From: a virus
Length of the DNA stretch: 64,000 nucleotides
Direction: 5' to 3' (one strand)
IMG/VR virus record: IMGVR_UViG_3300019776_000365
Location: 26,822-90,821 of that record
Shown piece after piece: positions 2 to 60,865 of the stretch. The notes beneath the pieces were generated by a model. The model had not been told where the DNA came from and did not search any database. It saw only the letters and a list, made by a program, of their open reading frames with translations. Positions within the stretch are counted from its first letter, which is position 1. Every line of letters starts with the position of its first letter. Both the position numbers and the translations under genes were made by a program.

Positions 2-3000
2 GCACCCGTTATTAATGCTTTAGCTGTTTTAGGCTTTGATGAAGAGACTATATGTTATTTCATTAATCAGCCTATAATAGAATATTACACAGAATTTATG
101 GCATCTAAGGATTCATCATTAAATGATTTCGATCCAGATGCCGGCGCTAATGTTTTTGATAAAATAGAGAATTTTATAATAGGCAAGTACAATATAACTG
201 ATATTGACAACTCATTAAATAATTCTGGAGTTGATGTTTTAAAAGAACAAATTGCAACTAAAGAACAAAATAGATCTAAAAGTTTTTGGGAAAAACAACT
301 TGGATTGCTTAGAAAATTTGAAGAAATTAACGAAGTTGGCAATTCAGTTCAAGCATTGATGCAAACCGTAAATGCAGAGTCTAAAGGACTCGGTAAGACA
401 TTGTTTGGCTCATTATCAAGAGAAGATAAAATTAATGATATAGATGATGTAACTGAGAGGTATAACTCTGGTAAGTCAGCTACAGGTATTATTAATGCAG
501 GTAGAATTCTATATGAATTTAATGAAGATGGTGAGTATACAACTAATGAGTTTAATGGAAAAATCACAGACTCATTAAATGGTTTTGTAGCAGAGTATGG
601 CACTAAAATATTAAATAATATTGGTTCTCAAATATTCCCATATAGAAAGAAGCCAATTAATGATATATTTGATTATCTAAGAGAGCTATTAGGCAAGAAA
701 GGTTCTTCAATATCTCAAGATGAAGATTTTATGGGTAAAACTTTTACAGCAATGAAGTCGTATTTATTCTCTAATACTAATCTATATGGAGATAAAGTTG
801 ATTTAAAGGCTGAAAGAAAACGTTTATTTCTTGGTGAATATAAACTATTAGATCCAAATAATCCTAACGGAGAAGCTATATTAGTAAACCCATCACTTGC
901 TGACACCATAGAAGCATTAAAAAATGAAAACATAGGTAAGTCTAACATGCTACTCAGGATGCTTACAGTGGACAAAAGAATGACCTCTAGCGCTGTTAAA
1001 CTGGTTAAATATAATGCAGCATCTGGTCAAAATGCAGATGAGTCTGAAATACACCAAGCATTTATAGCTTTATTTAGAGAAAATGTGCCATTAGAGTATA
1101 AAATTGGTGATAAAATTAATAAGATAAACTCAAGAGATCTTGCTTTAGATTTAATTAAATACACTTATTTATCTGGTGGCTCTCAAGAGGCTATACAATT
1201 CACTAGATATATACCTATAGATGTGCTTGAATATATTGGATTTGGCGATAGAATCAATACTATAGCAAAAAATATTAGCTTATCACATTTTGGTACAAGT
1301 GTAGAAAAAAATTCAATTAAAAATTCCAACTTTGTTGAACAGTATTTACAACATAACCCAAGTAAAGTGCCAGTCAAAATTAAAGGTAAACTAAACAAAG
1401 GCAATAAAGATTTAAAAAATGTTCAAATAAAAGATGGTATTGTTTGGAAATTCACTCCAAACTTTACAGTAGATACAACTAAAGGTTCCGCTGATTATAT
1501 GTTAGGTCAAAAATATGTTGTTGGCATGACCGACAATATGAAATATCTAATATATAAATTTAATGGTACTGAGTTTGTAAATATACCTACACTTGGAACA
1601 TTTGGTATGAGTGAATATGACTTTAACCTACCATCAGGAGAAGTTGCTCAATCTGTAATTACATCAAGAAATATAACTCCTTTAAATGAAAACAAACCTA
1701 GTGATATTAGCAATAAATTATCACAACAGGTTAAGCAAGAAGAGTTAGATGTAACAAAAGAATATGACTTATATAAGAATTCATTAGATAATGAAAATCA
1801 AATTAAAGGTATATTAGAGTTAATATCAAAAAATGGTAATGAAGCCAACAGTCGCATTGCTAAAAAGCTATTAGAAAACACTCACCTTTTAAATTCTATT
1901 AGTGATTATAATTTATCTTATGGAGATGTTGGTAGGTCATCTGGTAGGCACAACATGTATGATAAAACTATAACCATATCTAATATTAAAAACAAGTTTA
2001 AATCAAAAGATAAACTTGAAAATACTTTAGTTCATGAAATAGTTCATGCATATACTGTTAGAACGCTTAGATTAATATTTGATGATAAATTCAAATCAGA
2101 AAATATAGAAGAGTTTGAAAATCTAGATCCTAAAATTATTGAATCCGCTCGTAGAATTAGATCTATAAGAAGAGCTTTAGTTTATAAGGCTAAGTCATCT
2201 TCTAAAGAACTTAGCGATAAACTTAAAGACATAGAAGCTTGGTGGGCCAACAACAAAACAACTAAACTTACAGAAGAACATAAATTTGCTTATTCATTGA
2301 GTGATGATTTTGAGTTTGTCTCAATGGCGCTTACAGATAGTAGTTTTAGGTCAGAGATTGATAAACTAGATTCTATAAGTGATAATAATAGCACTCTAAA
2401 GAAGCTATGAGACGCTTTGCTTAAATTCTTAGGTCTTGATAGTGTATCTAATATAGATAAAACATTTATTGAAAACAATATATTTAATTTTATAGATACT
2501 ATTGAAACATCTATTAAAGAACCATCAAAAAAGATTGACAAGAAAGAATTTAAAGATAATGAAGAGTATAGAAACTTATCCAATATACTTGATGAAATAG
2601 AGTCTAAAAAAGAAGTTGAGATAATTAAAGAGCCAGTTAAATATTACGAAGGAAATATAACTCCAGATAAAAATACTATATTTGTTTTTGGTAGTAATCC
2701 AGAAGGTCGTCATGGTGCTGGTGCCGCTAAAATAGCGAGAACACAATTTGGCGCTATTTATGGTCAAGGTGAAGGATTGCAGGGTAATGCATATGCTCTA
2801 CCAACAAAAGATCTCAGGATTACCGAAAATAAAGGATTTAAATATATATCATTTGATCAAATCGTAGAAAACATTAAAAAACTATATGAAGTTGCCAAAC
2901 AAAATCCAGATAAACAATTCAAAATAGCTTATAGAAATACTACGACAACATCTTTAAATGGATATACTGGATTGGAAATGATTGAGATGTTTAAAACTGC

Positions 3001-4870
3001 CGGTGATATTCCATCAAATATTGTATTTAGTAAAGAGTGGATTGAAACTGGCGAATTTAATAAAAAAGAAGAACCAAAAGTTGAAGAGCAAACAAAACAA
3101 GAAGATCCAAAAAGTAAATCATTTTCATATAAAGGTGTATCAATAGACACTGAATTTCAATTAGGTGAAGACCAAGACAAATCACTTAAAGAGTTAATAG
3201 ATTTTATTGATGGCTCATCTGACACAGCAATGACACTACAAGGTGCTGCTGGTACTGGCAAAACAGCTACAATTGGTTATCTTCAGAAATACTTAAACAA
3301 AAAAGGTTATACTCCTTTTGTTTATATGGCTCCAACACATGCAGCAACTGTAGAATTAGCATTTGCTACTGTTAAAACTGGAAATACATCTATGCCATTT
3401 ACTGTAGCTAAGGCTGTAAGATATGATAGTCTAAATAAAAAGAATGTATTTACCATGAGAATAAATGAAATTTTATCTTATGGTGGTGTTATAGTAGTCG
3501 ATGAATCTTCAATGCTTGATGATAATGACGTAAATGCTATAATAGAAGCATCTGAAAATATTGGTGTTAAGGTTGTTTTTATGGGTGATGAGAAGCAGAT
3601 ACCAAAGGTTAGCAAAGAAGGTGGTGATGTAATGTCATTATTTGGTGAAGATTTTGGGACTATTAAAAAAAGAGTATCATCTGCTTTTACGAAACTAAAG
3701 CAAACAAATCTTAGACAAGTTTTTAGACAATCAGACAATGGATTGCTTGCACTTTTATCTAAAATGAGATCTCAAAATAATTTTAAATTATTTAAAGTGA
3801 ATAACAGAAAGTCTGTAAAATTTGTTGATAGAAGTGAGTATAATAAATTATTAAGGGAAGATATATTAAACGATCCTGAAAATACTATTGTTATATCATA
3901 CACAAACGGTTCTGTTCAAGAAGTTAACAAAAATGTTAGATTAATTAGAGGTATGAGTGGTAGTCCAAAAGTGTTTGATGTTATCATTGGATATATAGGG
4001 TATGCCAATAAAAAGATAGATGCTGGGAATATAGCTAATAGTGTTCAATATACTATTGATACAATACAAAGAGATGGCTCAGAACTTAGAATTATAGCAA
4101 ATTCTGATAAACTAAAACAACTAGTTGATTTAGGGATATCTGGTATATCTAAAGTAGCATTTACTAGATATTTGCAGTTATCACAAGGTGATAGTCTTTC
4201 TATTGATGATATGACAAAAGAAGATTATGACAACAACAATGAAACATTATCTAATATATTTAGATCGGTGCATGAATTAAATATGGCTTATGACAGAAAA
4301 CAGATTAAATATTACACATATCTAAATGCATTAGCAGAAAAAACTGCTATTTTAGCTGAATTGTCTGTTGGTGATAGTTATATTTATAATCCAAAAATCG
4401 ATAAAATGGAGCGTTATGATCAAAAGATTCATAAAAACATCAAATCATCTGGTAGTGGGTCTTTGTTGTTTGAGAAGGGCGTTGATTATGGTCATGCTAT
4501 AACAATACATAAATCTCAGGGATCTACTATAAACAATGTTTATTTTGACGCAGATTCAATAAATTCAGCTAGAGATACAAAAATACTTGATGAAAAAGAC
4601 AATCAAGTCACAACTGAAAAAATGGCTTTAGCTTATGTAGCTATGAGTAGAAGTAAGAATAAACTTGTTGTAAATAAAGGTAGTCAAGCTTTTGAACAGA
4701 TAGATGAAAATGAAGTTGAATCATTGCCTGAATTTAACGACTCTAGTTTTTTCGAATTAACAGAGGATGAAAGCAAAACTTTAATTAAAAAGCATGGCGA
4801 CAAAGCTATAGAGATGTATAATAACTTAAATGACGAACAAAAAGAAATAATACTTAAATGTTTAAGATAA
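2..4870 (+). CDS. Giant multidomain virion protein, 5'-truncated (>=1622 aa with TGA=Trp); probably the C-terminal part of the crAss-type virion RNA polymerase protein, followed by zincin, FVFGSN-type and RecD/Dda-like SF1 helicase domains
   Basis: Frame is open from position 2. ORFs 98-2410 and 2417-4870 share a frame and are separated by one TGA (2408-2410; KKL*DALLKFLG). Motifs: HEIVH (HExxH); IFVFGSNPEGRHGAGAA; GAAGTGKT, DESSM, GDEKQI, TIHKSQG, YVAMSR. The RNAP assignment is inferred from position, size and the LGF..FINQPII segment; no catalytic DxDxD lies in the window. Confidence 0.8.
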
Positions 4871-4871
4871 T

Positions 4872-7800
4872 ATGGCTAAATGTATAATACATAATGATAA
4901 ATTTAAAGACCTGGTTGAAAAATCAGGTCTTAACTCTATGCAATTAGAGGCTGAGATGAATCTTTGGATGACTAGAAATAATACAGATATTTGGCCAACT
5001 CTTAGTCAATTGGGTATTGAATTCAAAGATATAACAAAAGAACATAAAGGCATTATAAGAAATAGACTTTCAGATATAATCCCAAACATATCTGAAGATA
5101 AATTTAAAGAGATATATGAAAATTATACTTCATTAATGGGTAGAGGCGGTAGGCCTGGGAAGGAATTGCCTTTTAATAAATTCAAAGCGTTTGTTTCAAA
5201 TGCAAATGTGTATAACTATAAAGATACTTTTATTTTTGGACACTATGATACAATAAATAATGTTTTTATAACTACCATAAGTAGCAGCCCAAGTAGTAAA
5301 GAACTTTTAGCTGAAGCTATACCAAATATAGCTAAGAATTTTGATGTTATAGGATTTGCGCCAAAGGATGTTGTTGGCAAATATAAAAGAAGTGGATACG
5401 TTGTTAGCGATGCATTTTTTAATTATAATTTTAGAGGCGAAGAAATGAATAAATTTCTATATGCATCAAATCCTAATATAACAAAACGTATATATGGTAA
5501 AAATATAGAAGATTTATCTCAGAAGGAAATATTGGATTTAGATAATAGATCGTTGGGGTATATTTCATTTAGAAATCTTCTTGACGAATTAGTTACAAAT
5601 AAAGATAATTATAACTATAATATTGTAAACAATAACCTAAAAGAGCTTAGGGTTCCAGCTCATCAAAGAGAGAGGTTTTTAAAAGAAATAAAAAATGGTA
5701 GATATGAATATACAGAATACTCACTAATACCAGCAATCAAAAAGCTATACGATTTTAAAAAGGTTGATATTGATGAGAAAGACGAAAATGCTCTAAATCA
5801 AATAGTTCCAGATACCGAAAATCAATTAAACAAACTGTTAGTCAATTATCTTTCTAACTTTGGAATAAAAACAGAATACATTGAAGATATACAAAATAAA
5901 CTTGGTATAGATTCACTAGGAACTGTTGATATTCTTAACAAAATTGCATATGTAGATAAAGATAATACTGAAGATTTGCCGGAAATTGCAGGTAAATTTA
6001 TAGCATATATGCTTCAACACAACCCATTGATAACATCCACATATGAACAGCTTAGAAAAATAGGTAAATATAAAAATAGTAATAAGGATGAATTGTTAGA
6101 TATAATAGGCGAACTTATAGCTAAAGAGTTGCACAACAAAACGGATGTTAATTTACCTAAATCTTTAGCAGAAAAAATACAATCTATAATTGCATATTTT
6201 TTTGATTTACTAACAAAGGCCAGAATAAATAAAATCAACAAAGATATTGGAGTTATTGTTGATTCAATCTTATCAAATAATAAATCATTAATAACCGCAA
6301 GTAAATACAAGCCAGGATCTCCTGGTAAACAGGTTTTGCAAGTGTCACTAAAAGAGGCATTAAGATCTGATAGTTTTGCTAACTCTATAGTTAACAAGAT
6401 GGCTGATAAAGGATTTATTCTAACTGGAAGTGTTGTTCTTTCAGAGCAGGGCTCTATATTTAGACCAGAAGAAAATCAAGTTCATGATTTAGATTGGGTA
6501 AATCCTCATAATGAAGAAAAAACTAATGAGATATTAGATGAAATATATCCAAATAGAAAACATATAAGAAATATATATAACGAAGGTGAAGAGTCGTATA
6601 CTCATACATTTTTAATAAGTCCAGAAGGAACTAAAATAACAAACCTAAAACTTGAGGGGTCAAATTCCATAGTTAGATCATACAATATAGTAAATGATAA
6701 TAATGAAATAGTTGGCTCTTATTCCAATGAAAATGGTGTTGAAAGATCTAATGGTATTGAAGGGAAGGCTATAGATCTATTTATGAATGAACGTAACAAA
6801 TTAACTCCAACTCAAACAATATTAGAATCTGGAATAGTTTTAAACATGTCAAATTGAAGAGATATTTTTAAAGCTAAACTAAGATATGCAAGATTAAAAG
6901 ATATCTGAGACTATAATAGATTTATACCAAATGAAAATATAACAATAAAAGAAATTGCAAAATCAGAAATTAAAGGAGAAACTTATAATTCCACAGAAGA
7001 TGCCCCAGATATGACAGAGCCAGATGATATTACCGAAATGGGAACTTTATTTGACATAGAAATACCTGATGAATATAAGCTGTCAGATTTCAACTTAACA
7101 GAAGAAGATGAAGATACTATAAGTCAAAGCTCATACGCTAATCTTACAAGGATGCTTATATATAGACGCAATGATATATATAATGACATGCAAAATACTA
7201 GTACAGCCATTAGAAATGCTAAAGATGAATCTGAAAGAACCAAACTTAGAGAAAAGTACGCTGAGTTAAAAAGCAAAATGGACTCTATCGTTGAACGTAT
7301 AGATAAAGCCAATCAGCTTAAAAACATATCTCAATTAGTTACATTTGGTGAAGAGGATTTATCTGAGGCTATAAAGTTGTTAGAAGATCCTAATTTAACA
7401 GAGCATGGCCTTAGATATGCTAAAAGAATTGTTGATTTTTGGATTAAAGTAGCTGATTTTAATGTAGAGCGTGAGGGCCATGTTTTATTTGGTAAGAGCT
7501 ACGATAAAGTTATATCAGATAAAGAAAAAAATGAGTTTTTAGATTTGGCTAATAGAAAAGAAACTGGTGCTATAGCTTTGAGTCATATAATCAATGGGCT
7601 ATCTAGAGATTATATATCAAAAATGGTTAATAAACAATTAGATGGGACATTTAGTATAAAAGATATATATAAAGCTATAGAAGATATTAACTGGTGGAAA
7701 GCTAATGCATTCTCAATACAAGACTATTCTTCGCCATTATTAACGGCTATGTATAAAACTATGCGTCAAGCCGACATGGATGCTTCTAAAGAGGCTGAAG

Positions 7801-10568
7801 TGCTATCTAAACAGTTGAATGATCTACTTAGTAGGGTTAACAAAAAGCTAACATCAAAAGGAAGTGGTAGATATAGGATATTCTATCAAGAAGAGAATGG
7901 TAAGCTAAATGGTAATCTAGTAAGGATATATACAAAGAAATATCAAGATACAAAAGAAGAGTTACTTAAAAAAGCTCAAAATGCCACTGGTGACAATAAG
8001 GCTAGAGCTTGGGATGATTTTAAAAGATGGTCTAAAGCCAATGAAGATCTAATAGATATTAGATTGTTGTTCCCCACAGAAGAGTTAACTCAAGATCAAC
8101 AAATAGCAGCAGATAAACATAAAGCTCATATACTTAAAATGTTGGGTCAACGACAGTACGATAAAGTTATGAGTGAAATTTCTGAAGCTTTAATTGATTA
8201 TGATATATCAAGAAATCTAAAGAAGAATCAATTAGAATTAGATGATACTTTATCTGAAGATGATAAGTTTTTTAAACTAAAAGAGTGAGAGCATAAGAAA
8301 TCTCCATATATTGAGATGGAGAGACGCTTGGGTAGTTTAGAAGATGATGGTACATACAAGGATTCTAAAGTTATGTTAGGCCCTAATAGAACATTTGCAG
8401 ACAAAGGCGTTAGAGGTCTTAGAACTATTGCAAAAGAGTATTTGAGTGATGGTACAAAAACAGAATGGTATGATCCTAAATTTAAAGAAATATCTAAAGA
8501 TAAGGATTTGTTAGAGCTGTATAACTTCATATACGATACTATGGATTATATGAAGACATTATTACCAGAGCATCAGAGAAATCAAATATCAACTAATACA
8601 CTACCATTTATAGAAAAATCTATTGTTGATATGTTTTCTGAAAACTCCGCTATTGGCATGGCTAATATGTGGAGTGAGATACAGAACTCATTTATGATTA
8701 AAAACTTAGATGAACGCAAATATGATGAAATTGATGTAACAACAGGCAAGGCTATATCAAAGGTAAAAGTTACCACCTTTATGTCTGGAGATAAGAGATT
8801 AAATGATGCTATAAAAATAAAAGAAGCTGAGTTCATAGCTAAGACTGGTAAAAACCCATCAAAAGAAGATGCAGTAAAATTTAGAAAAGAAGCTTTAGAT
8901 GATTTAAATAAAGAAAGATCATTTGATTTGCCATCATTAATAAAGATGTATACAGGCTCGTTATTGGCCTATAAGCATAAATCTAACGTTATAGATATAA
9001 TAGAGATAGCTAGAGATGCCGTTGATGAAATAAGCGAAATATCGACATCTAATGCCGGTAGAGAGCAAATAGATCCATTGACTGGTAAGCCTAGAGTTCA
9101 AGCTGGACTAACACACCTCAAAGAGTCATTAGATTACGCCATGGATGCTTTTAAAGGGCAGCCAATACATACTAGAACGGCTGCATCACAAAATAAAAAA
9201 TACAACCATAAAGACAAAGTAGAATTAAATAAGTTATTATCTACTAAAGCTTTGTTGGATGAAAAATTTAATAAAGGTAAGATTAGCAAAGCAGAGCATG
9301 ATAAGCAAATATCTGTAATAGACAGTAAAATAAACTCATTGGGAGGATATGCTTCTTTTGAAAAAGCTGGTGAAAATGTATTGAAATACATTCAACTTAA
9401 AGGCATGGGATTTAATGCTATAGCAGGTGCTGTCAATCTAACTACAGGCTGGTTAGAGAACTGCATTAGATCTGCTGATGGTAGGTTCTTTGATTCATCT
9501 CAATTAGGAGCTTCATATAGAGATGTTATGTCTACTATATACGACCCTATGAGAAAAAATAGCACTACTAGAAAATTGGTAGGTATAGAAAAGTCCTTAA
9601 GGATATTAAATAATCCAGCTCATGAGTTGTATAAAACCGAGTCTAAGTTTGGAAAAGTAGCTTATATTATAACAGAAAAGACTGAGTTTGTGAACGTTAT
9701 GTCTATGTCTGGTGCTTATCTTAGAAATATTAAAGTTAAAGACGCTAAAGGCAATGATTCTAATCTATATGAAGCATTTAAAGAGGATGGGTCTATTAAA
9801 GATGGCTGGAAGTTAAGCAATACTAAAACTAATGATGAGTTTTTGTTTGATGTAAGCCAAGCTATACAAGCTTTAATTAAAAGATCTCATGGTAACTACA
9901 GAGATTCACTCAAGGGTAAAAAAACTATATTGGGTCAAATGGCCTTTCAGTTTAGGACTTGGATGCCAGAATTGTACAATTCAAGGTGAGGAGCAACTCA
10001 GTATGACTATATACTTAATAAAGAATTTAAGGGTAGATGGAAATCATATGGCACATTAACTGGTAGTGAGTTTAATGGAAATACATTTACAGCAGCAGAC
10101 AATACATTGTATACATTAGGTCAGCTATGTAGAAAGATATTATTTATGAGGACTTCATTTGATGGTAGGATGTCAGAAGTTGATGCTGCTAACATGAAAG
10201 CAAACCTTATGGAGCTTCATTTTGTACTTGGTACTATAGCTTTGATGTTAATGTTAAGAGCAGCCATTCCAGATGAAGATAGAAAGAAAAACTTTACATA
10301 TAATATGTTGATTAATCTTATTACAAGACAGCAGAATGATATATTAGTTTTCGCTAACCCTGGGACATTTGAGCAGATTAATAAAAATGTATTACCAGTA
10401 ACAAGTGTTATATCTGATACTAAAAACTTAATGACGGCTATTAAAAATGAATTTAGCGATGATGATAAACAGCATGGTAAATCATTTGTTAAGGCCGTTA
10501 AGATGGTCCCACTTGGAGGCCAGCTAGTTAGAATTGGTCAATATGGATCTAAAGAAATAGCTCAATAA
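4872..10568 (+). CDS. Giant virion/ejection-type protein (1898 aa with TGA=Trp)
   Basis: ORFs 4872, 7011, 8316 and 10107 are all in one frame, joined by TGA at 6855, 6906, 8286 and 9987 with no TAA/TAG until 10566. Hydrophobic helix near the C-terminus; internal GS...DLD nucleotidyltransferase-like motif. Confidence 0.85.
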
Positions 10569-10591: not shown

Positions 10592-10629
10592 ATAGGTGGG
10601 ACTTTTTACATCCCACCTATTTTTGTTTT
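10592..10629 (+). terminator. Rho-independent terminator at the convergence of the + and - blocks
   Basis: ATAGGTGGGA / TCCCACCTAT 10-bp stem followed by TTTTGTTTT. Confidence 0.8.
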
Positions 10630-11089
10630 ATTTTTTACTATCAATTAAGTCAGTACAAAGATAAACACTTGAAATTACTGGAATTCCTACTTGTTTGCAA
10701 GAATTTTTAATATCATTAATTGAATACATTGGTTTATTATATTTAATATATTCTTCTGCTTTTTCTTTAGTTGAAAAATATTTATAATTCATTAAATCTG
10801 GGTTACATAGAGTATTGCTATAATCAATTCCCATTGAAAATGACTTTAAATTTACATAAAATATATCCGGATGGTTGTTTTTATAAATATCTACACCATC
10901 TTCTGTTGTAAATAATGGTCTTGGTTTTACCAACTCCCAGTATTCTGGATAACTGTTATAAAAATTAGTACCCATCCAATCAGGGTGAGATCTTAAATGC
11001 AATACATCAATACCATCATACCAATGTATTGTATTTAAAGATGGGCTACCAGGATATGTTTTGATTAATTTATACTCTATTTTACTCAT
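10628..11089 (-). CDS. hypothetical protein
   Basis: 153-aa ORF in a tightly packed - strand operon. Confidence 0.7.
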   Translation of the reverse strand: MSKIEYKLIKTYPGSPSLNTIHWYDGIDVLHLRSHPDWMGTNFYNSYPEYWELVKPRPLFTTEDGVDIYKNNHPDIFYVNLKSFSMGIDYSNTLCNPDLMNYKYFSTKEKAEEYIKYNKPMYSINDIKNSCKQVGIPVISSVYLCTDLIDSKK

Positions 11090-11342
11090 ACACTTGTGTT
11101 TTTATTAATTGTTTGTTTTTATCGTAAGTTTCTATTACATTTAAATTAAGCTTATTTGCAGCCTGTTTAAGCGCATATCTCAAGTCAAACATGCCATTGC
11201 TTATCAATTGAAATATAACCCGGATTTCGTCAGCGGAAGGCTCTTTAACGCCACATAGGTTGCAATAATATACTATAAACTCAGTTAGTTTATTTTGATC
11301 TACACTATTGTTCTCAAGTGTGTTTTTTATGAAATCTTTCAT
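11082..11342 (-). CDS. hypothetical protein
   Basis: 86-aa ORF overlapping the next start. Confidence 0.7.
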   Translation of the reverse strand: MKDFIKNTLENNSVDQNKLTEFIVYYCNLCGVKEPSADEIRVIFQLISNGMFDLRYALKQAANKLNLNVIETYDKNKQLIKTQVYE

Positions 11343-11360
11343 AAATACTTATGATTAACT

Positions 11361-11591
11361 TTATTTGATATTATTTATAGTTATAAATGCATCAAACTCT
11401 TTAAATATTTCATTATGCTCAAATACGATTCTATCTTTCACTTCATCTTCAAATTCATCCTCTGGTAGTTTAAATAGGTTTGATTGCATATCATAATATC
11501 CAATATTGCTATGTTTAAACACAAGACCACCAATGTCAATTAATATATCATATTCTACTCTTACTGAAATTTCATCTCTTGGGTCGTGCAT
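11361..11591 (-). CDS. hypothetical protein
   Basis: 76-aa acidic ORF. Confidence 0.6.
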   Translation of the reverse strand: MHDPRDEISVRVEYDILIDIGGLVFKHSNIGYYDMQSNLFKLPEDEFEDEVKDRIVFEHNEIFKEFDAFITINNIK

Positions 11592-11730
11592 AATATTTAT
11601 TTATTTGTAATCAACCGCAGGGTTACTGGTTTGTAATGTTTAGTGTTAACCATTTTTATTTAGCGTATTACCTAACAGCTCTCCTTCAAGCAATACAATT
11701 GCCGTTTAGTGTGTTTTGGTTGATTGTTTA

Positions 11731-11982
11731 TTATTTTTTAGTTAATTTAGCCCCAATGCCAAGGCCACCACATATAGCTATTACATATCCGCAAGCAGTA
11801 AATAAAACAGGCGACACATGATATGAGTTTTGCAAATCAAAGTATTTATCCATTGCAAGAACTCCAGCATTAGCCACACCTATGGTTATTGCATAGCTTT
11901 TTACTTTTTTAAAAAAGATTGGACTTTCTGCCTTCCACCTAATAAATACTTCTTTTATAAATGATGTTTCTTTAAATTTCAT
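11731..11982 (-). CDS. small membrane protein (two hydrophobic segments)
   Basis: RWKAESPIFFKK followed by two TM-like stretches. Confidence 0.65.
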   Translation of the reverse strand: MKFKETSFIKEVFIRWKAESPIFFKKVKSYAITIGVANAGVLAMDKYFDLQNSYHVSPVLFTACGYVIAICGGLGIGAKLTKK

Positions 11983-12205
11983 TTTGTTTTTCCTCTAATA
12001 TTTTTATTAGTTTCTCGATATACCACTTAGCTTTTTTAATATCTTCTAAGCCATTCTTATCTTCATATCTCCATAGGTATTTAATGGCATTCGCTGTACA
12101 TATAGCTTCAATACCAGATTTACCTACTGTTGCACTTTCTAATGCATCAATACATTCTATTTTACCATTTTTATAATGGTTTGGATTAATATTATCTTTA
12201 CTCAT
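11972..12205 (-). CDS. DUF3310 / T7 gp1.7-like protein
   Basis: INPNHY..IECID, NAIKYLWRY, KNG.EDIKKAKWY. Confidence 0.85.
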   Translation of the reverse strand: MSKDNINPNHYKNGKIECIDALESATVGKSGIEAICTANAIKYLWRYEDKNGLEDIKKAKWYIEKLIKILEEKQNEI

Positions 12206-14137: not shown

Positions 14138-14142
14138 AATTA

Positions 14143-14652: not shown

Positions 14653-14658
14653 CTATTA

Positions 14659-14904: not shown

Positions 14905-14907
14905 TTA

Positions 14908-48659: not shown

Positions 48660-49199
48660 ATGAGATTATTTGAATATTCAAATTATAAATTAAATATAGC
48701 ACCAGAGGTATATACAGTAAAAGCATTTAAGGATCTTGTTAAACGAGATAGAACTGTAGAAAAAACACAAGCAGAACAAGCGTTTTCTTTCATTTATTTC
48801 GTATATGACCCAAGGAGTGACTTGCAGTATATAACTGATGAAGATGAGCGTATATCAAGAGCAATAGAGCTTTTAGGTATAAATGACAAGTTTAAGGTAG
48901 ATGAAGTTATATCAAAAGCTATAGAGGTGTATAAGAGTCTTACAAAGACAACATCTTCTATGCTACTTGATGACATTAAAATGAGTGTTGACAAGATTAG
49001 GGAATACCTTAGAGATGCCTCTGTTAACGATGACACCTTTGATAGATACACTAGGGCTGTAGAACGATTAATACCACTTACAGAGAAGGTTACTAATGCA
49101 GAGAAAGTTGTAGTTAAAGAAGTAGAAGAACTGTCTAAGATGCGTGGTGATAAGCAACAAACCTTGTTAGACGGAGGTTTTAGTAACTTTATGAAATAA
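48660..49199 (+). CDS. conserved protein upstream of the terminase (candidate small terminase subunit)
   Basis: MRLFEY start; FIYF.YDPRS; TAATG overlap with terL. Confidence 0.65.
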   Translation: MRLFEYSNYKLNIAPEVYTVKAFKDLVKRDRTVEKTQAEQAFSFIYFVYDPRSDLQYITDEDERISRAIELLGINDKFKVDEVISKAIEVYKSLTKTTSSMLLDDIKMSVDKIREYLRDASVNDDTFDRYTRAVERLIPLTEKVTNAEKVVVKEVEELSKMRGDKQQTLLDGGFSNFMK

Positions 49200-51487
49200 T
49201 GAGTAATATAATTATACCAACAAACAAATATCAAACACAGATAACCGACGATCTTTTAAACGGTCTAAAAGATGAGGTTAAAAGTGAGTTGTTTGATATT
49301 ATAAATAATGTAGAATTTGTTAGACGAATTATATCACCAGATAGAAAGTATGCAAAAGATTGTGATAAAGATTCATCAGGTAGACTAATTGTCGATCTTT
49401 GCAATCCTCACATACTTGAAAATATGGATTACTTTAGGGAGTCAGCTATACACTTTCAAAAGCACGGAGTATATACTAAATTAAGACCAAACCCAAACCC
49501 ACAATCTGAGTATGGTCAATGGCTTAAAAGAGAGCTACTTAGGTGTTGGAATGGCATGGTAAGACAATCAGATGGGGAGTGGATTACTGGCGATATGTAC
49601 TTCTATTTAAATTACTTCCCAATTATTCAAACTAAAATTAGGAAGGGTACTAAAATTGGAGACCGTATAACAGATTTACCAGAAGTCTGAGAAGGAGTAT
49701 ATTGAAGATTTCATTATATGGAGCAAGCTAAATATGGTGGAATATATAACGATTTTAAAGGTGCAAATCATGGTTGTGAAATAGCTCGAAGGGGGGCTAG
49801 CAAGTCGTATACGATAGCATCTATATTATCTAAGCATTTTATATTAGGCGACAATGAGATATCAAATAGCAAGGTTAAATGTTTAATTAGCGCATATCAA
49901 AAAGAATTTCTAGTTAAAGATGGCACTTTAAATAAATTCTCAGATGGGTTGGCTCATTGCTCTAAATATACTCAATTTCCATCTAAAAAGCTAAAACAAT
50001 CATGGTCTGATTTAACATGAAGGGCTGGGTATATAGATACAGATAGAGATGTAGAGGCTGGTACTCTAAATGAAGTTATAGGCGTAGCAGTAAAAGATGA
50101 TGAAACAAAACTAAATGGAAAACGTAGTGTAAAAATGTTTTACGAAGAGTTTGGTATGTATCCTAAGTTTCTGGATGTATGACAGTTAGGTCTTCCAAAT
50201 GTTCAAGAAGGTGAAGTTGCATTTGGTTTTGCATACTCAATTGGCACGGGCGGGGCAGAGGGGTCTGACTTTATGGGAGCTTTAGAAATGCTTAACCACC
50301 CAGAAGGATACAATGTTTATTCATTACCTAATTTTTGGGATAAAAATTCTCAAGGTAAAAAGAAAACTATATTTTTCTTTCCAGGATATATTAATTCAAA
50401 GGGTTATTACAATAATGATGGAGTATCAGATGTTATAGGCGCTCTTATATCCGAGATTGAATTCAGGGTTAACCTGAAATACAACTCATCAGATCCAATG
50501 CAGTTGACTAGAAGAAAGGCTAATACAGCTTTTACTATACAAGATGCTATCATGAGACGAGATGGGTCGTTATATCCATCAGATAAACTAAATGACGTTA
50601 TTAATCAAATATCATTAGATCCAACATATACTGATGATATGTGGATTGGTAGATTAAGGATATCTAAAAATGGTGATGTTGAATATAAGCCAGACAATGA
50701 CGTTAAATATATAACAGAGTTTCCACATAAAGATAACAAACATAATGGTGCTATATGTATAAAGCACATGCCAGTTAGAGATAGCTCTGGCAGAGTTCCA
50801 TGAGGTAGATATATAGCTGGCATTGACACATTTGACGATGATGGTTCAGATACATTATCGTTGTTTAGCTTATTTATATTAGATTTGTTTACCGATGAAT
50901 TAGTATTTGAATATACTGGTCGTGAGATGTTTGCTGATGATTCTTATGAGGTAGCTCGTATGGCATTATTAATGTATAATGCTGAATGCAACTATGAAAA
51001 TAACAAGAAGGGGTTTTTTACTTATATGTCTAAACACAATTGTTTATACTTACTGTCTGATACATTGGATTTTCTTAAAGATAAAGAAATTGTTAAAGGC
51101 GGTATGTATGGCAATAAAGCCAAAGGTACTGGCAATTATGGTAGTGTAGCGCCATATGCTAGAAGATGTATTAGAGATTACCTATTAAAAACATCAGAAA
51201 ATATTCAAGTAAAAGAAGTTGATGGTAAGCTAGAATCATTATCAACTACCAATATATTTAATTACCAAAAGATATGGTCAAAAGCATTACTGCAGGAGTT
51301 AGCTTCATGAACTCCAGATGGTAACTATGATAGGCATGATGCTATAGCAATGCTTATGTTGCTTAGAGAAGACAAACTTAGACTTCTTGGTAACACATCA
51401 GCAAAGGATGCTATAAACAATAGAGATGTTAATTACGCTGGTAATGACGAATTTTTTAAGAAGAATTATAAAAGAAATAAATCATAA
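49199..51487 (+). CDS. terL: terminase large subunit (762 aa with TGA=Trp)
   Basis: Four ORF fragments in one frame joined by TGA at 49688, 49703, 50018, 50180, 50801 and 51308. Motifs: RRGASKS (Walker A-like), YEEFG (Walker B), GTGG, YIAGIDTFD nuclease motif, YENN, NYDR. Confidence 0.92.
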
Positions 51488-51598: not shown

Positions 51599-53980
51599 AT
51601 GCAGTGATTAAGTACATTTCCACAGCAAAAGCTTCCATTCAATAAAAAAAATAGAGAGTGGAGAATGAAGCACTGCGACTGAGCAGACAAAAAGATTTAC
51701 TTTTATGACAACTCCGTTAGAAAGTCATTCATTCGTAAAAGAGTAAACTACAATCTTGTAAATGGCTATTTGGATTTAACTGATATGACAATGGTTTTAA
51801 ATCCAGATAATATAGATGCCAGTTATATTCCAGAGAACATAATGCACTACAATATAATGCAATCTTATTTGAATGTTCTTAAGGGCGAAGAAGCAAAGCG
51901 TAGTTTTGATTGAAAACTTATAGTAACAAATCCAAATGCTATATCTGAGATTGAAGAAAATCGCAAGAATGAATTTATGCAAAAACTTCAAGAATCTATC
52001 CAATCGGAATATCCAGATGAAGAGTCTTTTAATAAAGAGATTCAAGATATGCAATACTTTTTTAATTATGAATGGCAAGACATTAGAGAAGAACGTGGTA
52101 ATCTACTATTAAATCACTATATAAAAGAACTTGATATTAAACTTAAGTTTAATCAAGGGTTTGGTGATGCTATGTATGTTGGAGAAGAGATTTACCAATG
52201 TGACATAGTAGGAGGAGAGCCGACTTTTGAAAGGATGAATCCACTCAAAATTCATATGTTTAAGAATGGATATTCTAATAGATTTGAAGATGCTGACATT
52301 TTGGTATATATAGATTTCTGGCAACCAGGTCGTATTATAGATACATTCTATGATGTATTAACTGATAAAGATATTGAGTTTATTGACAATATGCCTCAAA
52401 TATACTACTCAGATAATAATGCAAATATAGATGAAAGAAACTCATTCTTGAATCTATCTGATATGAATGGATTTGAGAATGGGGAAGGCTCTGTTATTGA
52501 AAACTATAGTATATTTGCGCAGAATGTAGGCGCAGCAGCAACAACTAATTATTATGATAATAACGGTAATATCCGTGTTATACGTGTATATTGGAAGTCT
52601 AAGCGTAAGATTAAGCAAGTTAAATGGTTCGACCCAGAGACTGGCGATGAAAGATTTGACTTTTATCCAGAGACTTATAAATGCGATAAAGATTTAGGTC
52701 AAGAAGAGTCTGTATTTTGGATTAACGAAGCATGGGAGGGTACTAAAATAGGTAGAGATATTTATGTTAATATGCGTCCTAGGATTGTGCAATACAATAG
52801 GATGTCAAATCCATCAAGATGTCACTTTGGCATAGTAGGATCTGTTTACAACCTGAATGATAACAAGCCATTATCGATGGTTGATATAATGAAACCATAC
52901 GCTTATTTATATGATGTTATACATGATAGATTAAATAAAGCAATAGCTGCCAACTGGGGTAAATTAGTTAAACTAGACTTAGCTATGATACCGAAAGGCT
53001 GGGAGGTTGACAAATGGCTGTATTATGCAAAGATAAATCATATAGCTGTAGTAGATAGTTTTAAAGAAGGTAATATTGGAGCAGCTACTGGGAAGTTGTC
53101 AGGTATGCTAAATAATCAATCATCTGGTGTTATTGACGCTGAAACTGGTAATTATATACAACAGCATATAAATCTACTACAGTTTGTTAAAAATGAAATG
53201 GCAGATGCTTGTGGTATATCAGATCAACGGAAGGGGCAAATATCAGCATCAGAGACCGTAGGAGGCGTAGAAAGGGCGACATTGCAATCTTCTCATATAA
53301 CTGAGTGGTTATTCCTAACACATGATAACGTCAAAAAGAGAGCCTTAGAATGCTTTCTAGAAACTGCTAAGATTGCATTAAAAGGTCAGAATAAAAAGTT
53401 TCAATATATACTAAGTGATGGATCGTCTAAATTTATTGACATAGATGGTGATGAATTTAATGAGTGTGATTATGGGTTGGTATTAGATAATTCAATAGAG
53501 TCTAAAAACCTTAAGGAAAATCTTAATCAGTTAGCACACGCAGCATTGCAAAATCAAACGTTATCATTCTCTTCTATAATGAAAATTTACTCATCTCCAT
53601 CATTGTCTGAAATACAAAGAATTATTGAGAAAGACGAAAAAAATATTCAAGAAAGAAAGTCTCAAGAACAACAGCAAGTGCAACAAATGCAACAACAGCA
53701 ACTTCAATCAAATATGCAAATAACTCAAGCTAAAATAGATCATGAGACTCTGTTAAACAACAATGATAACGAGACTAAAATCCTTATTGCAGAAATACAG
53801 GCTGGATCTAATAACGAAGAATCCACCAGAGAGGATCTAATGGAAAAAATCAGACAATTTGATGAAAAAATGAATTTACAAAAAGAACAGTTAAGTCATC
53901 AAATAAATCATGACAACGAGGTTAATCGCATGAAAGAAAAGTCGCTTGAAATGCAAAAACAAAATAAAAATAGAAAATAA
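51599..53980 (+). CDS. portal protein (793 aa with TGA=Trp)
   Basis: ATG 51599 is in frame with ORF 51977; TGA at 51605, 51680 and 51911 (FPQQKLPF..K...WR....D*AD; RSFD*KLIVTNPNAIS); follows terL; Gln-rich coiled-coil C-terminus. Confidence 0.88.
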
Positions 53981-54270
53981 TGAATTCTACATCAAGAGGA
54001 GTTAATAATAAATACTCTACTGCACAAATAGGAACTCCAAAAATAACAAAATCTTTGTTAGTTGGAGTTTATAATGAATTTAGTGATTGTTTTGTTAGCG
54101 TGTACAATCCAAATGAAACATACTCAAAATTATTTGTATATAACACAAGTAAAGATCCAATTGATATTGGTAAAACATTTCCACCTGGGTACAATGAGTT
54201 CATATATATACCTAATGGGTGAACTTTAGAAGTTGCTACAAACACATTAGAAGTTACAGTTCAGGTTTAG
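53980..54270 (+). CDS. hypothetical structural protein (96 aa with TGA=Trp)
   Basis: TGA at 54220 (IPNG*TLEV), TAG at 54268. Confidence 0.65.
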
Positions 54271-54279
54271 AATTGACAT

Positions 54280-54513
54280 ATGGAATGAACTGATGACAAA
54301 ATATTACACTACCGTATTGGATATAAATTTGGAAGATATGGTAGTGTTTTTGGATTATTAATTATATCAATTATACTGGCACATGTAAAAGAAATATGTG
54401 ATTTAATTAGAAATAAAATATTTAATAAAAAATATTATTTTGAAATTAATGATTATATTTCTAGTGTAATTGGAGCATTTTATGGAATGTTGTTTGAAAA
54501 GAAAAAATACTAA
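54280..54513 (+). CDS. small membrane protein (77 aa, TGA at codon 3), absent from the ORF track
   Basis: ME*TDDKILHY...LAHVKEICD; DKxxH...KExxD pattern; fills the gap. Confidence 0.65.
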
Positions 54514-54526: not shown

Positions 54527-57397
54527 ATGGCTAATAAAAAATTAAGCGAATCGCCAGATCTATTAGCTGGCGATATTGGATCAACAACCAAGATAGTTGC
54601 TTTATCTGGTGTTGTAAGCCAAAATGTAAACATACCAATAGATGAGTTTGTTAATGATAGTTTAACATCTACTAACAAATATCAAGCATTAAGTGCAAAT
54701 CAAGGTAAAACACTTGATAATAAAAAGATAGATAAAACGTCAATAGAAAATTCTCTAATATCAACAGATAGTACAAAAGTATTATCAGCAAATCAAGGTA
54801 AATCGCTAAAAGATTCATTTGATACTTTGTCTACAAATTTATCATCACATACGCATAATGGAACTAATGCACAAAAAGTAGATCATGTTAACCTATTAAA
54901 TAAAGGAATTCTTACACACGAGCAACTAGATACTGCGTTTAATATCAACACTGGACACAAACATGATGGATCTGATAGTAGAAAGATAAGCCATATAGAT
55001 CTATTAAATATTGGTACTAATACACATAATCAAATTGACAATACATTAATAGATTTACAAACACAAATACAAGATATTGAAGGTGGTATATTAGGTGGTA
55101 TTGCTTATAATGATCCAGCCCCTACACCTGGCAAATCTGGTAAATATTCCTTTACTTCCGCTGGTGTATGTAGTTGAATTACGGGTACACCTACTGTAAA
55201 GATAGGGGATGAAGTGTTGGTTACTTTTACTGCTCCAAGTACTTATGCTTATAAGTGGTTAGATACAGGGAGTAACTATGCTATAAAGTCAATAGTAGAC
55301 AGCGATCAAAGAATTAAAAATGCAGTTTTACAATTGAGGAATACAATCGATTTGTCTGAAGTCATATGGTCTAATATAATATTTGCGAACAATGGTTATA
55401 ATATGGGTAATGCAGATTACACGGCAAGCACTAATTATATTGCAATCCCTCCGGGAGAATATTATATTAGAATAAAAGAAGGTTATAGATTTAGTTGTGT
55501 TGAACAGGATGCCGGTAATATTGGTGCTGCTGCGGATAATTTATTGGTTAGTACGTATGGAAAAAGCCAAACAATAACTGTGACGAAAAGTTATATTCGA
55601 TTGCAGATAGTAAAATGGACTAATGACGCAATTGATGAATCTATTGTATTTGACATTTCTGATTTGACTGATATTATCGAAACTATTCAGGTATTAGAAA
55701 AAAAAGATAGAATATCTAATATAGAAGATACCGTCAAAATAAAACAAGATGTACTAACGGACGGTAGTGTAACAGACAGTTTATTAAAGTCATCATTTAT
55801 TAAACAGCAACAAAAATCTTTTGCTGTATCTAAATTAGAACTGATACCTAGCGACAACATCAATTTACTATCAACGTCTTCAAATACCGCATATGTTAGA
55901 GGGAAGAACTTTTGCGCAAATTCATTTGGTTCTGGTGATGGCGTCACATTGGTATCTCAAACAGCATCTCATACAGATATACTGGTTTCATCAGGGTTAT
56001 ATAGGGCATTTTATATGCCGTATCAGCAGTATCCAGCCGGTATGTTTACGGCTTCTACGGAAATCGAAATTTTGTCTGGAGTGGTAACTGAGCAAATGTA
56101 CTTATATTTTGATGATACTGCGGTTGCATTAACATTAGACCAAAATGATAACAAATACAAAGGACACATCTCTAAAGAAATATTAACCCAGAACTTGAAA
56201 AGACCATTTATCCAATTTTCAATGGGTAATGCTACTAACGAGCTTACTTGCCGTGTCAGGATACAAGTTGAGTCAGGTTCATATGTAAGTTTTATTGAGG
56301 ATTATGTAGGGCAAGACGTTATATTATCACCTAATGTTGCAAGCAAGTTAGATGCTGATAATTATATATGGATATTTGGCAATGGATATAACTTATCTTA
56401 CTATAGTGATATTATTTATAATACGACAAATAGGGTGGTATGTTGGGGTGACTCATTGACCGCTGGGGCTGGTAGTAATATTTTAAAACCTGTTTCAGAT
56501 ATAAATACAGATACAAGCTACCCAGCAGTTTTAGGGAGACTGTTGACTAATAAAAAACAGGTGGTGAATATGGGTGTCGGTGGTGAAACATCTTGGATGA
56601 TAGCCGCAAGACACGGTGCAATTCCAGTTAGTGTATTACCAACAACGATTCCATCTTCAACTAATGCTGTTAGAGTATATTTGAAAGGCAAGGAGCAGGA
56701 TTTCTATTATGTTAATGGTGATTGGACATATTTAAAAGACAATTTGTCGTATAATATAGATACAACAGGAGTAAATCCGTGTTATATAAACGGAATAAAA
56801 GGAAATTTAAGTCGTATGTTGTTGTCAGTTGGAGAGCCTGATCCAGAAACAGGAGAAACCGTTCAGTCATCTACATACGCTTACTATTTTACAAGGGAAG
56901 AAGCAGGAGATATTTCAGCATTTACATATCCAAAACAGTTAGTGACATTTGCGTCATCAGAATACAGAAATGATATTCAAGTAATTTGGATGGGTCAAAA
57001 TGATGCTCCAAATCATGACGGTCAGTATGTATTGCAGGTTGGATCTTATAATAGAGCGAGAGCTATGGCAGACCACTGTATTGCGAATGATAAGAGATTT
57101 ATCGTTATGAATGCACCTGCTGGGGATGATTTAAATAACGCTGTCATTGATCAGCAATACGCTTTAGAATTTGGGAATCACTTCATAAATATACGTAAAT
57201 ATATTTGTGAGTTTGGGGTGGATATAGCAAATAGTATGGGCGCCGGAATAACATTAGATGCTAACGATCTTGCATTGGTGGAGGCTGGATCTATTCCATA
57301 TGCATTTCGTATTGATGGAGTACATGGCAACTATTGGTATTATCAAATTGTAGCTAAGGCTGTATTTGAAAAAGGGAACGATTTGGGGTATTGGTAA
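54527..57397 (+). CDS. tail fibre/spike with C-terminal SGNH hydrolase domain (956 aa with TGA=Trp)
   Basis: ORFs 54527 and 55214 are in frame across TGA 55175. LSANQGK.L repeats and H-x-H motifs; WGDSLT, GVGGETS, GQND, DGVH. Confidence 0.8.
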
Positions 57398-57920: not shown

Positions 57921-58058
57921 ATGCAATTTATAAGATTTGGACATTTATTGTCTAGTATAAAAAACAAAATAGATATTGACTCATTAATATGGATACTGAC
58001 AACTGGGTTTTGGGATGACATTGGAGTTTGAGATGATGATGATACTTGGATAGATTAA
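57921..58058 (+). CDS. small Trp/Asp-rich protein (45 aa with TGA=Trp), absent from the ORF track
   Basis: WILTTGFWDDIGV*DDDDTWID; TGA 58029 falls exactly on the 6-residue Trp periodicity. Confidence 0.7.
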
Positions 58059-59490: not shown

Positions 59491-60078
59491 ATGACAAAAT
59501 ATTTATATATATCTATTATAGTTGTTATTTGCTTATTGGCTTCAACACTGTTTTATCAGTATGTTAAGATTAAAGACTTAAATGTAAAATATATTACAGA
59601 AGCAAATAACTATAAAGCATCTATTGACAATTCAATAAAACTGAAACTAACAATAGACCAGCTGGAATTACAGAATGATTCTATATCAAAAAAAATAGAT
59701 TCAGTAATTTTATCTAATAAGATTAAATCAAAAACAATATCTAGTGTATCATATATAAAACAAAAAGTATCAAAAAAAGATACATTAATAATAAGTGATA
59801 CTATATTTGTAAAAAATCTAAACCTTGACACAGTTATTGTTGATAAATGGAGTCGTATTAAAATAGTTCTTAAATACCCATCTATAATCGCTTTAGAACA
59901 ACAATTTACCAATGAGCAATACATTGTTTCATCTGTAAAAAAAGAGACCGTAAAACCAAAAAAGATATGACCATTGTGTATATTTCAAAAGAAGCAATTA
60001 ATAGAAAGAGTTTCAATATTCAATTCTAACCCATATGTCACAAATAAAGAGCAAAGATATATAAATATAATTAAATAA
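59491..60078 (+). CDS. membrane-anchored coiled-coil protein, spanin-like candidate (195 aa with TGA=Trp)
   Basis: N-terminal TM segment; TGA 59968 (KPKKI*PLCIFQKK...NPY); stop 60076 abuts the next gene. Confidence 0.65.
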
Positions 60079-60084
60079 AAATAC

Positions 60085-60483
60085 ATGATTACAACAGCGT
60101 TTCTAACACAATTTATTTTACCAGCATTACTTATGATAGCAACATCGTGGGTAACTTGATTTTTTAGCAAAAAAAAAACAAAAGAAGAAGTTGAAGTCCA
60201 AGAGTTAGATACAGAGTCTAAAGAAATAGATAATCTAAAAAAATTGATAGAAACACTTCAGGGGGAAATCACCAGACTAAATGGAGTGCAAACAAATTTA
60301 GTTGAAAGAATAGAAACATTAGAGAAAAAGTTAGAACAAAAAGATATAACTATTGATTCTAAAGATAAACTAATTCAAAGAAAAAAGTTAGTTATATCTC
60401 AATCTTATAAATGTAAATATTCAGAAGAGTGTCCTGTTTTAAAAAAGCATATAGAGCTAGGGGGTAATAATGAGTTATTTTAG
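60085..60483 (+). CDS. holin-like membrane protein (132 aa with TGA=Trp)
   Basis: ATG 60085 is in frame with ORF 60244; TM segment ending SWVT*FFSKKK (TGA 60157), then coiled coil; overlaps the endolysin start. Confidence 0.6.
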
Positions 60484-60865
60484 CATAAAAGAATTAGAGC
60501 ATAGCGATAAAGCAATTAAATTAGGTATAGATAATTCTATACCTAATGAGCTTTTATCAAATGTAAATAAACTGATAAATACTCTTGATATAATAAGAGA
60601 AAAGTATGGTAAGCCAATAACTGTTACATCTGGATATAGATGTAGCAAATTAAATAAAGCTGTTGGTGGTGAAAAGACATCGGCTCATATGATGGCTAAT
60701 GCCGCTGATATAACTTGCGATGACAATAAAAAGTTATACAATACTATAATATTGTTGCGTAAAATTGGCAAGATAAAATACGACCAAAATATAAATGAAA
60801 AGAATTATGCATGAATTCATATTAGCACGGATGGTAGATTTAGATCACAGGATTTTTCTTTATAA
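60470..60865 (+). CDS. endolysin, peptidase M15 family (131 aa with TGA=Trp)
   Basis: YF...EL..S, SGYRC..LN.AVGG...SAH....AAD, then NYA*IHIS (TGA 60812), which restores the W-x-H motif. Confidence 0.9.

Follow-up and report, generated by a model that had tools for sequence, protein, structure and literature searches.

The late, + strand genes of this phage very probably use TGA as a tryptophan codon, most likely decoded by a tRNA(UCA) that the phage itself encodes. The window, meaning the whole 64-kb stretch of DNA analysed here, is part of a complete genome of 90,821 bp (90.8 kb) with terminal repeats, a low GC content (30%) and TAA as the dominant stop codon. The late genes concerned would be those for giant virion proteins, terminase, portal, tail and lysis. 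The reading of TGA as Trp, proposed earlier from the letters of the window, is upheld by homolog columns rich in Trp or other aromatic residues, by a gain in coding under translation table 4 on the + strand only, and by the encoded tRNA(UCA).

Judged by its profile matches and its layout, the phage belongs to Crassvirales, and its closest named relative is the Steigviridae phage cr108_1. A crAss-type major capsid protein is present (PF23898 Crass_capsid, E 1e-124), as are the terminase large subunit (TerL) and the portal, with profile matches to phrog_6681, phrog_6547 and phrog_11589. The best tblastn matches of TerL are crAss-like phages without exception. The genome layout is likewise typical of the order, with a size in the ~90-105 kb class, replication and virion modules on opposed strands, and giant virion proteins, with ORFs of 1349-1898 aa. 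The TerL search included cultured relatives whose hosts are Bacteroides and Flavobacterium, and these hosts use the standard code; from the Crassvirales lineage and the TGA-free early genes, the host of this phage presumably does too. The sequence was found in one DNA run only, labelled aquatic metagenome, at ~9-10x depth, and no RNA run was listed. The record was evidently gene-called with table 11, and public gene calls hold truncated products, namely a 667-aa piece of the portal (P0121) and a 1068-aa piece of a giant protein (P0245).

In-frame TGA codons of the late genes

All 22 coordinates listed as in-frame TGAs by the sequence-only reading are indeed TGA, on the + strand and in the frames it gave. 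One of them, 58029, is doubtful as a genic site: it lies in a putative 45-codon ORF (57921..58058, + strand) that lacks support and for which the homolog search returned nothing. Homolog alignment showed columns dominated by Trp or aromatic residues, and such columns directly back 16 sites: 2408, 8286, 9987, 46870, the six in TerL, the three in the portal gene, 59968, 60157 and 60812. Two more, 6855 and 6906, are backed indirectly, and three (54220, 54286 and 55175) by frame continuity and codon usage; these three and 58029 are the four sites at which homolog support is absent. Across wider homologs, the column at 51605 and, in part, that at 50801 are not predominantly Trp. The frames are interrupted by TGA exclusively, with zero TAA or TAG and zero frameshifts, and since a random frame at 30% GC is expected to meet TAA or TAG every ~16 codons, the long open frames far exceed chance. 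Codon-usage scoring of the short segments after each TGA was positive in frame, yet such scoring favours any stop-free frame, and we therefore count it as weak support.

Re-calling of genes per strand with table 4 instead of table 11 increased the coding cover of the + strand from 26,253 to 28,602 of 30,700 bases, while that of the - strand block was nearly constant with TGA as sense (27,801 to 28,197 bases). Over the whole genome, + strand ORFs carry ~57 in-frame TGA vs 128 TGG, a TGA share of 31% of the Trp codons, and the pattern thus extends beyond the window. In the earlier claim that TGA is read as Trp throughout the + strand genes, "throughout" really denotes the virion, packaging and lysis genes, because the 13 small + strand genes ahead of TerL contain only one TGA. 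Three table-4 "ORFs" with in-frame TGAs were rejected as spurious and left uncounted: 45076-45282, which lies inside the tRNA cluster; 46352-46393, which overlaps the preceding gene; and 63258-63320, located upstream of the ATG of a homing endonuclease. An Rfam scan of 62900-64000 found no intron family.

The terminase large subunit gene (49199..51487, +) contains six TGAs, at 49688, 49703, 50018, 50180, 50801 and 51308. Reading them as sense joins the fragments into one 762-aa ORF with a single phrog_6681 match over residues 98-757 (E 1e-70), and homologs P0001-P0010 are 764 aa long. Trp is the commonest residue at five of the six columns, being found in 120/120 homologs at both 49688 and 50018, and in relatives TGA and TGG interchange at these columns. 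The portal gene (51599..53980, +; 793 aa), with TGAs at 51605, 51680 and 51911, is joined in the same way, and residues 5-790 of the resulting ORF match phrog_6547 (E 1e-139). Trp occupies the 51680 column in 117/119 homologs, and the 51911 column holds F, Y or W. Position 51605 is codon 3, in the variable N-terminus, where homologs carry D, L or A; the start at 51599 agrees with homolog N-termini. Ahead of TerL, a Cys-rich small protein of 68 aa (46717..46923, +) has its TGA at 46870, and the column in related loci is W in 22, Y in 4 and I in 3.

Two giant proteins occupy the beginning of the window. The first, a virion-type protein of 1888 aa (2..4870, +, starting 796 bases before the window), has a virion-structural-like N-terminal part and an SF1 helicase C-terminal part (Pfam AAA_30, PIF1, UvrD_C_2), joined across the TGA at 2408. 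A phrog_16227 match (stretch 174-828) runs across residue 803. In P0313 the column is W within a conserved L-W-D-A-L motif, with the alignment continuous across the site, and in P0248 it is F. The second giant protein (4872..10568, +; 1898 aa) contains TGAs at 6855, 6906, 8286 and 9987. In P0241-P0244 the columns are W, W, F, W at 8286 and W, F, F, F at 9987; as to 6855 and 6906, P0241 and P0242 carry residues 1-49 and ~680/730-1898 within one protein. Residues 1497-1857 gave a weak tblastn match to a cr111_1 gene annotated as "putative RNA-polymerase subunit". The related-loci search with both giant proteins returned zero relatives, and a search for the "gene A" segment in the records of five relatives gave zero matches.

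Downstream of the portal gene, two small ORFs of 96 and 77 aa in the same frame (53980..54513, +) are linked by frame and codon usage across 54220 and 54286; no alternative start codon occurs between 54286 and 54487, and the homolog search with both ORFs found none. The adjacent tail fibre or tail protein (54527..57397, +; 956 aa) has N-terminal fibre repeats and a C-terminal GDSL-like domain, and continuity at its TGA, 55175, is indicated by the common frame and 12 open codons. A tblastn search of its N-terminal half against phages yielded a short match to residues 42-146 only and none across 55175. The lysis region (59491..60865, +) comprises three genes with one TGA each, with profile matches to phrog_739 and phrog_894. 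These encode a 195-aa protein (59968; column F 14, W 2, C 1), a membrane Rz-like protein of 132 aa (60157; L017-19 and L048 have W) and an endolysin of the M15 peptidase type (Peptidase_M15_3; 60812; L041 has W). A PDB sequence search with the endolysin aligned residues 39-82 only, which is uninformative for the TGA column.

The suppressor tRNA and the replication block

A predicted opal suppressor, tRNA(UCA), was located at 44831..44901 on the + strand by ARAGORN and by Rfam (RF00005, 54 bits, full model). It is the first in a cluster of four tRNAs heading the + strand block and is adjoined by tRNA-Met(CAU), tRNA-Leu(UAA) and tRNA-Ile(UAU) (44908..45307, +). The tRNA is of type I and carries every element of the bacterial tRNA-Trp identity set: a short variable loop, A1-U72 as the first pair, G73 as the discriminator, and C35 with A36. 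It was aligned with the tRNA(UCA) of relatives and with a phage tRNA-Trp(CCA), and it shares A1-U72 and G73 with the latter. A scan for sigma-70 promoters and for the Bacteroidetes-type TAnnTTTG motif barely exceeded chance, and for this reason we claim no promoter for the cluster. The genome encodes no release factor or TrpRS, and no other code-change enzyme was found.

The replication, nucleotide-metabolism and amidoligase block on the - strand (10628..41284), which includes ribonucleotide reductase, primase, DnaB-like helicase and exonuclease genes, is compatible with the standard code. Its credible genes comprise 9,344 codons with 140 TGG and 0 internal TGA; at the + strand share of 31%, the chance of such an absence is ~4e-23. 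Up to six - strand ORFs end in TGA, but a TAA or TAG follows 0-13 codons beyond each, so that these ends are no proof that TGA acts as a stop.

These features suggest the following mechanism. As the tRNA-Trp features A1-U72, G73, C35 and A36 are kept, host TrpRS would charge the tRNA(UCA) with Trp, and the charged tRNA would read UGA in competition with host release factor 2 (RF2). With no internal TGA in the - strand block, a host with an unaltered standard code could translate it from the start of infection, whereas full-length late proteins would need the suppressor tRNA to be already present. Such an arrangement may bring a regulatory benefit, for example in late-gene or lysis timing.

Alternative readings of the TGA codons

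The TGAs could be true nonsense codons in a decaying genome, or systematic TGG-to-TGA errors of sequencing or assembly, and the occurrence of the sequence in a single run at ~9-10x depth leaves some room for this. Against it, TGA is the only interruption of the frames, free of TAA, TAG and frameshifts, the TGAs fall on Trp columns, and the pattern recurs in fifteen independently assembled relatives at partly different Trp columns. Moreover, the record is complete with its terminal repeats, and the Logan assembly (contigs) of the run shows zero differences from it over TerL and portal; this second assembly speaks against the assembly error that had been named as a possible refutation, although it is not an independent read check because the record itself may derive from this sole run. 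We regard this reading as the least credible of all, with a negligible chance. Decoding of TGA as another amino acid, such as Gly (code 25), Cys, Ser or selenocysteine, might be read from the ARAGORN label "SeC" and from the long-variable-arm tRNA(UCA) of relatives L032 and L063. The label follows from the anticodon, and the window tRNA is 71-73 nt long, its variable loop is short and its acceptor stem has 7 bp, unlike the long variable arm and extended acceptor stem of tRNA-Sec; it also has the A1-U72 pair and G73 of tRNA-Trp. The homolog columns are occupied by W, or by F and Y; Gly was not listed at TerL or giant-protein TGA columns and turned up rarely, in 3 loci, at a single portal column, and Cys occurred a single time, at 59968. 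Such decoding is accordingly most improbable. Only marginally better are the prospects of a host that itself reads TGA as Trp (code 4), with early and late genes of the phage following the host code alike. Trp columns on the + strand, and - strand TGA stops that all have TAA or TAG close behind, would suit such a host; it is at odds with a - strand devoid of internal TGA and with the standard code established for the hosts of cultured relatives, and it would make needless a suppressor tRNA that is kept across the recoded clade.

An incomplete reassignment deserves more weight, and we consider it possible, though clearly not the likelier outcome. UGA would remain partly a stop via host RF2, and the chief role of the TGAs would be to throttle expression or to yield truncated products; termination at 2408, for instance, would give a giant protein of 1068 aa that lacks the helicase part. 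The genome carries none of the code-change enzymes sought, 2408 sits between two domains, two homologs (P0341 and P0329) terminate exactly at its column, and Borges et al. (10.1101/2021.08.26.457843) have proposed a delaying role of in-frame stops for late and lysis proteins. Against this, six TGAs would leave very little full-length TerL unless suppression is efficient, and the two homologs that terminate at 2408 may themselves come from recoded genes cut short by table-11 calling. Incomplete reassignment would refine rather than exclude the decoding of late-gene TGA as Trp by the phage tRNA.

Recoded relatives and known systems

Fifteen IMG/VR contigs with ~72-78% TerL identity form a recoded clade with the window. 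All fifteen have TGA in TerL, interchanging with TGG at Trp columns and at partly different positions, and 127/157 in-frame TGAs of recoded relatives align to Trp of the window. A tRNA(UCA) was detected in six recoded relatives, which are all those with sufficient upstream sequence for a call, and in 0/4 standard-code relatives scanned; in L032 and L063 it is the 94-nt form with a long variable arm. In the TerL tree the window is basal within the wholly recoded clade, and the sister is the standard-code cr108_1 (Pipoluvirus rarus, Steigviridae, NC_055878.1). The two phages are 59% identical in TerL and 62% in portal and have a common gene order (TerL, portal, tail, lysis, MCP), but cr108_1 has TerL as one CDS, TGG at the Trp columns and no tRNA(UCA). 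With a standard-code sister so close, the window and cr108_1 make a useful pair for studying the origin of the code switch.

A bolder proposal, which we rate as doubtful, is that a separate, non-gut (aquatic-labelled) Steigviridae-like lineage switches an infected standard-code cell to UGA = Trp by one tRNA alone, with two suppressor architectures in the clade, 73-nt Trp-like and 94-nt with the long variable arm; the two would imply that the tRNA was replaced and the reassignment kept. If true, this would offer a compact natural system for a one-tRNA override of RF2, and for asking whether UGA serves the same cell first as a stop and later as a sense codon.

Published work already covers recoding of this kind, its confinement to late genes and the suppressor tRNA, and current understanding is unchanged; with the present genome, a complete and terminally redundant example and its clade of 15 contigs join the crAss-like phages known to be TGA-recoded, and its late block must be gene-called with table 4. 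Yutin 2021 (PMC7886860), with 243 recoded genomes, described late-gene-restricted TGA-to-Trp recoding in crAss-like phages. Like the window, those phages have in-frame TGA in late genes such as TerL and portal, confinement to the late part, a phage suppressor tRNA and code switches over a short phylogenetic distance; the window and its 15-contig clade come from IMG/VR, and the one run with the sequence is labelled an aquatic metagenome, not human gut. Peters et al. 2022 (PMC9523058) validated TAG = Gln (code 15) in crAss-like phages by metaproteomics and gave TGA = Trp as a prediction only; both cases rest on the principle that late genes give a stop codon an amino acid meaning, but the codon and the amino acid differ. 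The preprint of Borges et al. reported stop-codon recoding of late and lysis genes, for example in the TGA-recoded Agate and Jade phages, which share with the window low GC, TAA-dominated stops, a suppressor tRNA, recoded structural and lysis genes, replication genes compatible with the standard code, and a recoded codon in each lysis-region gene. The window belongs to Crassvirales and not to Agate or Jade, and whereas Jade phages carry a "code-change module" of RF1 or TrpRS, its genome has the tRNA alone.

Coding under two genetic codes

Under the standard code (table 11), the plus-strand genes of this phage are broken up; the TerL gene (49199-51487, +), for example, falls into pieces of 163, 100, 176 and 149 aa. 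Reading TGA as Trp (table 4) gives single ORFs for TerL (762 aa), the portal (51599-53980, +; 793 aa), a tail protein (54527-57397, +; 956 aa) and giant proteins A (2-4870, +; 1888 aa) and B (4872-10568, +; 1898 aa), and residues 98-757 of TerL and 5-790 of the portal each form one unbroken match to their PHROG. The sequence-only reading had listed 22 in-frame plus-strand TGAs as Trp codons: all 22 positions are TGA, in the frames it assigned, and the per-strand comparison of coding density that it proposed agrees, with plus-strand cover rising from 26,253 to 28,602 bases under table 4 and the minus-strand block nearly constant. Outside the window the pattern goes on, with one 1349-aa ORF holding 14 TGAs; plus-strand ORFs of the whole genome contain about 57 TGA versus 128 TGG.

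The window covers positions 26822-90821 of an IMG/VR virus record of 90,821 bp, rated complete, with 99-bp direct terminal repeats. Its major capsid protein (MCP) matches Pfam Crass_capsid (E 1e-124), TerL and portal match crAss-type PHROGs, and the best named relatives are crAss-like phages without exception, the nearest being cr108_1 (Steigviridae, Pipoluvirus), at 59% TerL identity. The minus-strand block (window 10628-41284) encodes ribonucleotide reductase, primase, a DnaB-like helicase, exonuclease and an amidoligase cluster; the plus-strand block, running from 44831 through the record end to window 10568, carries tRNAs, small genes, TerL, portal, tail and lysis genes, MCP and the giant virion proteins.

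Across 55 minus-strand ORFs (9,344 codons) TGG occurs 140 times, and none of the credible genes contains an internal TGA; given the plus-strand TGA share of 31%, the probability of zero is about 4e-23. TAA is the main stop on both strands (52/60 minus, 39/43 plus), and the six minus-strand ORFs that stop at TGA under table 11 each have a TAA or TAG 0-13 codons further on. The early block should therefore be readable by a standard-code cell and tolerate suppression; the late block, where the in-frame TGAs lie, needs it. The early block also encodes a glucosaminidase-domain protein (36409-36942, -; PF01832; phrog_21890 'endolysin') that ends at TGA and is a different protein from the recoded late-block M15 endolysin.

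Residues at TGA sites and recoded relatives

In an alignment of the window TerL with 120 homologs, TGAs 49688 and 50018 fall on invariant Trp columns (120/120 each) and 51308 on a column with 111 Trp; 50180 (W 85, Y 34), 50801 (W 67) and 49703 (L 61, W 43) are more mixed. In the portal, 51680 is Trp in 117/119 homologs and 51911 aligns to an aromatic residue (F, Y or W). Counted from the real start at ATG 51599, with which homolog N-termini line up, 51605 is the third codon. At 2408 in giant protein A, homolog P0313, whose alignment covers both flanks, has Trp within a conserved L-W-D-A-L-x-K-F-L-G-L, and P0248 has Phe. Homologs of giant protein B read W, W, F, W at 8286 and W, F, F, F at 9987; support for 6855 and 6906 is indirect, in that P0241 and P0242 hold the first 49 residues and about 700-1898 in one chain. 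Among smaller genes, 46870 in a 68-aa protein aligns to W 22, Y 4 and I 3, 59968 in a 195-aa lysis-region protein to F 14, W 2 and C 1, 60157 in a membrane, Rz-like protein to Trp in 6/6 aligned loci, and 60812 in the endolysin to Trp in the single aligned relative, just ahead of an I-H-[IV]-S motif. For 54220, 54286 and 55175 the evidence is an uninterrupted frame together with codon usage; before 54487 there is no alternative start codon for 54286. At most sites the homolog column is Trp or another aromatic residue, in favour of the proposed assignment; 51605 lies in a variable N-terminus, and 58029 in a 45-codon ORF for which no homolog was found and which we do not accept as an established gene.

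A TerL scan of IMG/VR returned 63 loci. Fifteen with good TerL coverage (~72-78% identity) carry 3-9 in-frame TGAs each in TerL, on Trp columns that partly differ from one relative to the next, indicating that TGA and TGG replace each other as synonymous codons do. Over all genes compared, 127/157 of the relatives' TGAs align to window Trp and 16/157 to Phe. The TerL tree groups these contigs with the window in a single clade, at the base of which the window branches; the clade's sister is cr108_1, which uses the standard code. This sharing of TGAs at partly different Trp columns within one clade excludes assembly error and gene decay, and a second assembly (Logan) of the run holding the sequence, which may be the source sample, is identical across TerL and portal. 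Farther out in the tree, contig L033 is recoded separately, and contig L028 (52% TerL identity) is amber-recoded among standard-code neighbours, with 14 in-frame TAGs in TerL, several at Gln columns.

The UCA tRNA and a possible role for recoding

The plus-strand block opens with a tRNA of anticodon UCA (44831-44903, +; ARAGORN), full-length by Rfam (54 bits) and followed by tRNA-Met, tRNA-Leu(UAA) and tRNA-Ile(UAU). Its short variable loop, first pair A1-U72 and discriminator G73 recur in the phage tRNA-Trp(CCA) of a relative and in E. coli tRNA-Trp; a tRNA-Sec identity was rejected, as the architecture does not fit. A tRNA(UCA) is present in six recoded relatives having upstream sequence and absent from 4/4 standard-code relatives scanned. 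Neither a release factor domain nor a class Ib synthetase was found encoded in the genome, by searches that detected control genomes. The tRNA is 73-74 nt long in the window and in relatives L003, L008, L009 and L061; recoded relatives L032 (3997-4090) and L063 (6975-7068) have a 94-nt form with a long variable arm that retains A1-U72 and G73, and their TerL TGAs are nonetheless on Trp columns. Elsewhere, the Rfam tRNA model matches 158 nt at window 42038-42195 (-) with 38.4 bits; the acceptor, D and T arms are intact there, and a ~107-nt insert takes the place of the anticodon arm.

We infer that host TrpRS would charge tRNA(UCA), which, once accumulated, would outcompete RF2, and that full-length late and lysis proteins would be made only after it wins; Borges et al. 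(10.1101/2021.08.26.457843) proposed this scheme. Yutin et al. (PMC7886860) suggested a different purpose, harm to the host's protein production through readthrough, and neutral drift in a low-GC genome (30% GC) after tRNA capture is a possible alternative to either purpose. Suppression at UGA may be incomplete; TGA 2408 falls between the virion-like and SF1 helicase parts of giant protein A.

Neighbouring genes and known recoded phages

In giant protein A, an N-part that resembles virion structural proteins and gives a weak zincin (SprT/M76-like) signal is joined to an SF1 helicase (AAA_30, PIF1, UvrD_C_2); between them lies a widespread ~150-aa domain, phrog_2072, known in many 2000-6000-aa proteins. 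The MCP gene is split between window 62208-63992 and genome 235-738: the cr108_1 MCP aligns in two parts, residues 2-328 at window 62217-63206 and residues 330-497 at genome 235-738. The ~0.93-kb gap holds a LAGLIDADG_2 homing endonuclease ORF (63321-63992). Since stop codons part the pieces, an intron is likelier than an intein; the window's share of the insertion gave no Rfam match to an intron family. After the portal, ORFs of 96 and 77 aa (53980-54513) share one frame with only TAG-AAT-TGA between them, whereas cr108_1 has one 169-aa gene at this place, with no homology detected.

Yutin et al. found recoding mainly restricted to late genes, with suppressor tRNAs in many phages, and Borges et al. 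described the same module restriction, with lysis genes recoded; the proteomic validation by Peters et al. (PMC9523058) is for TAG = Gln only. The sequence-only interpretation of TGA as Trp is right. Every sequence-level hallmark of the known recoded phages was found here, and the phage is therefore a further case of known late-gene TGA recoding, not a new type.
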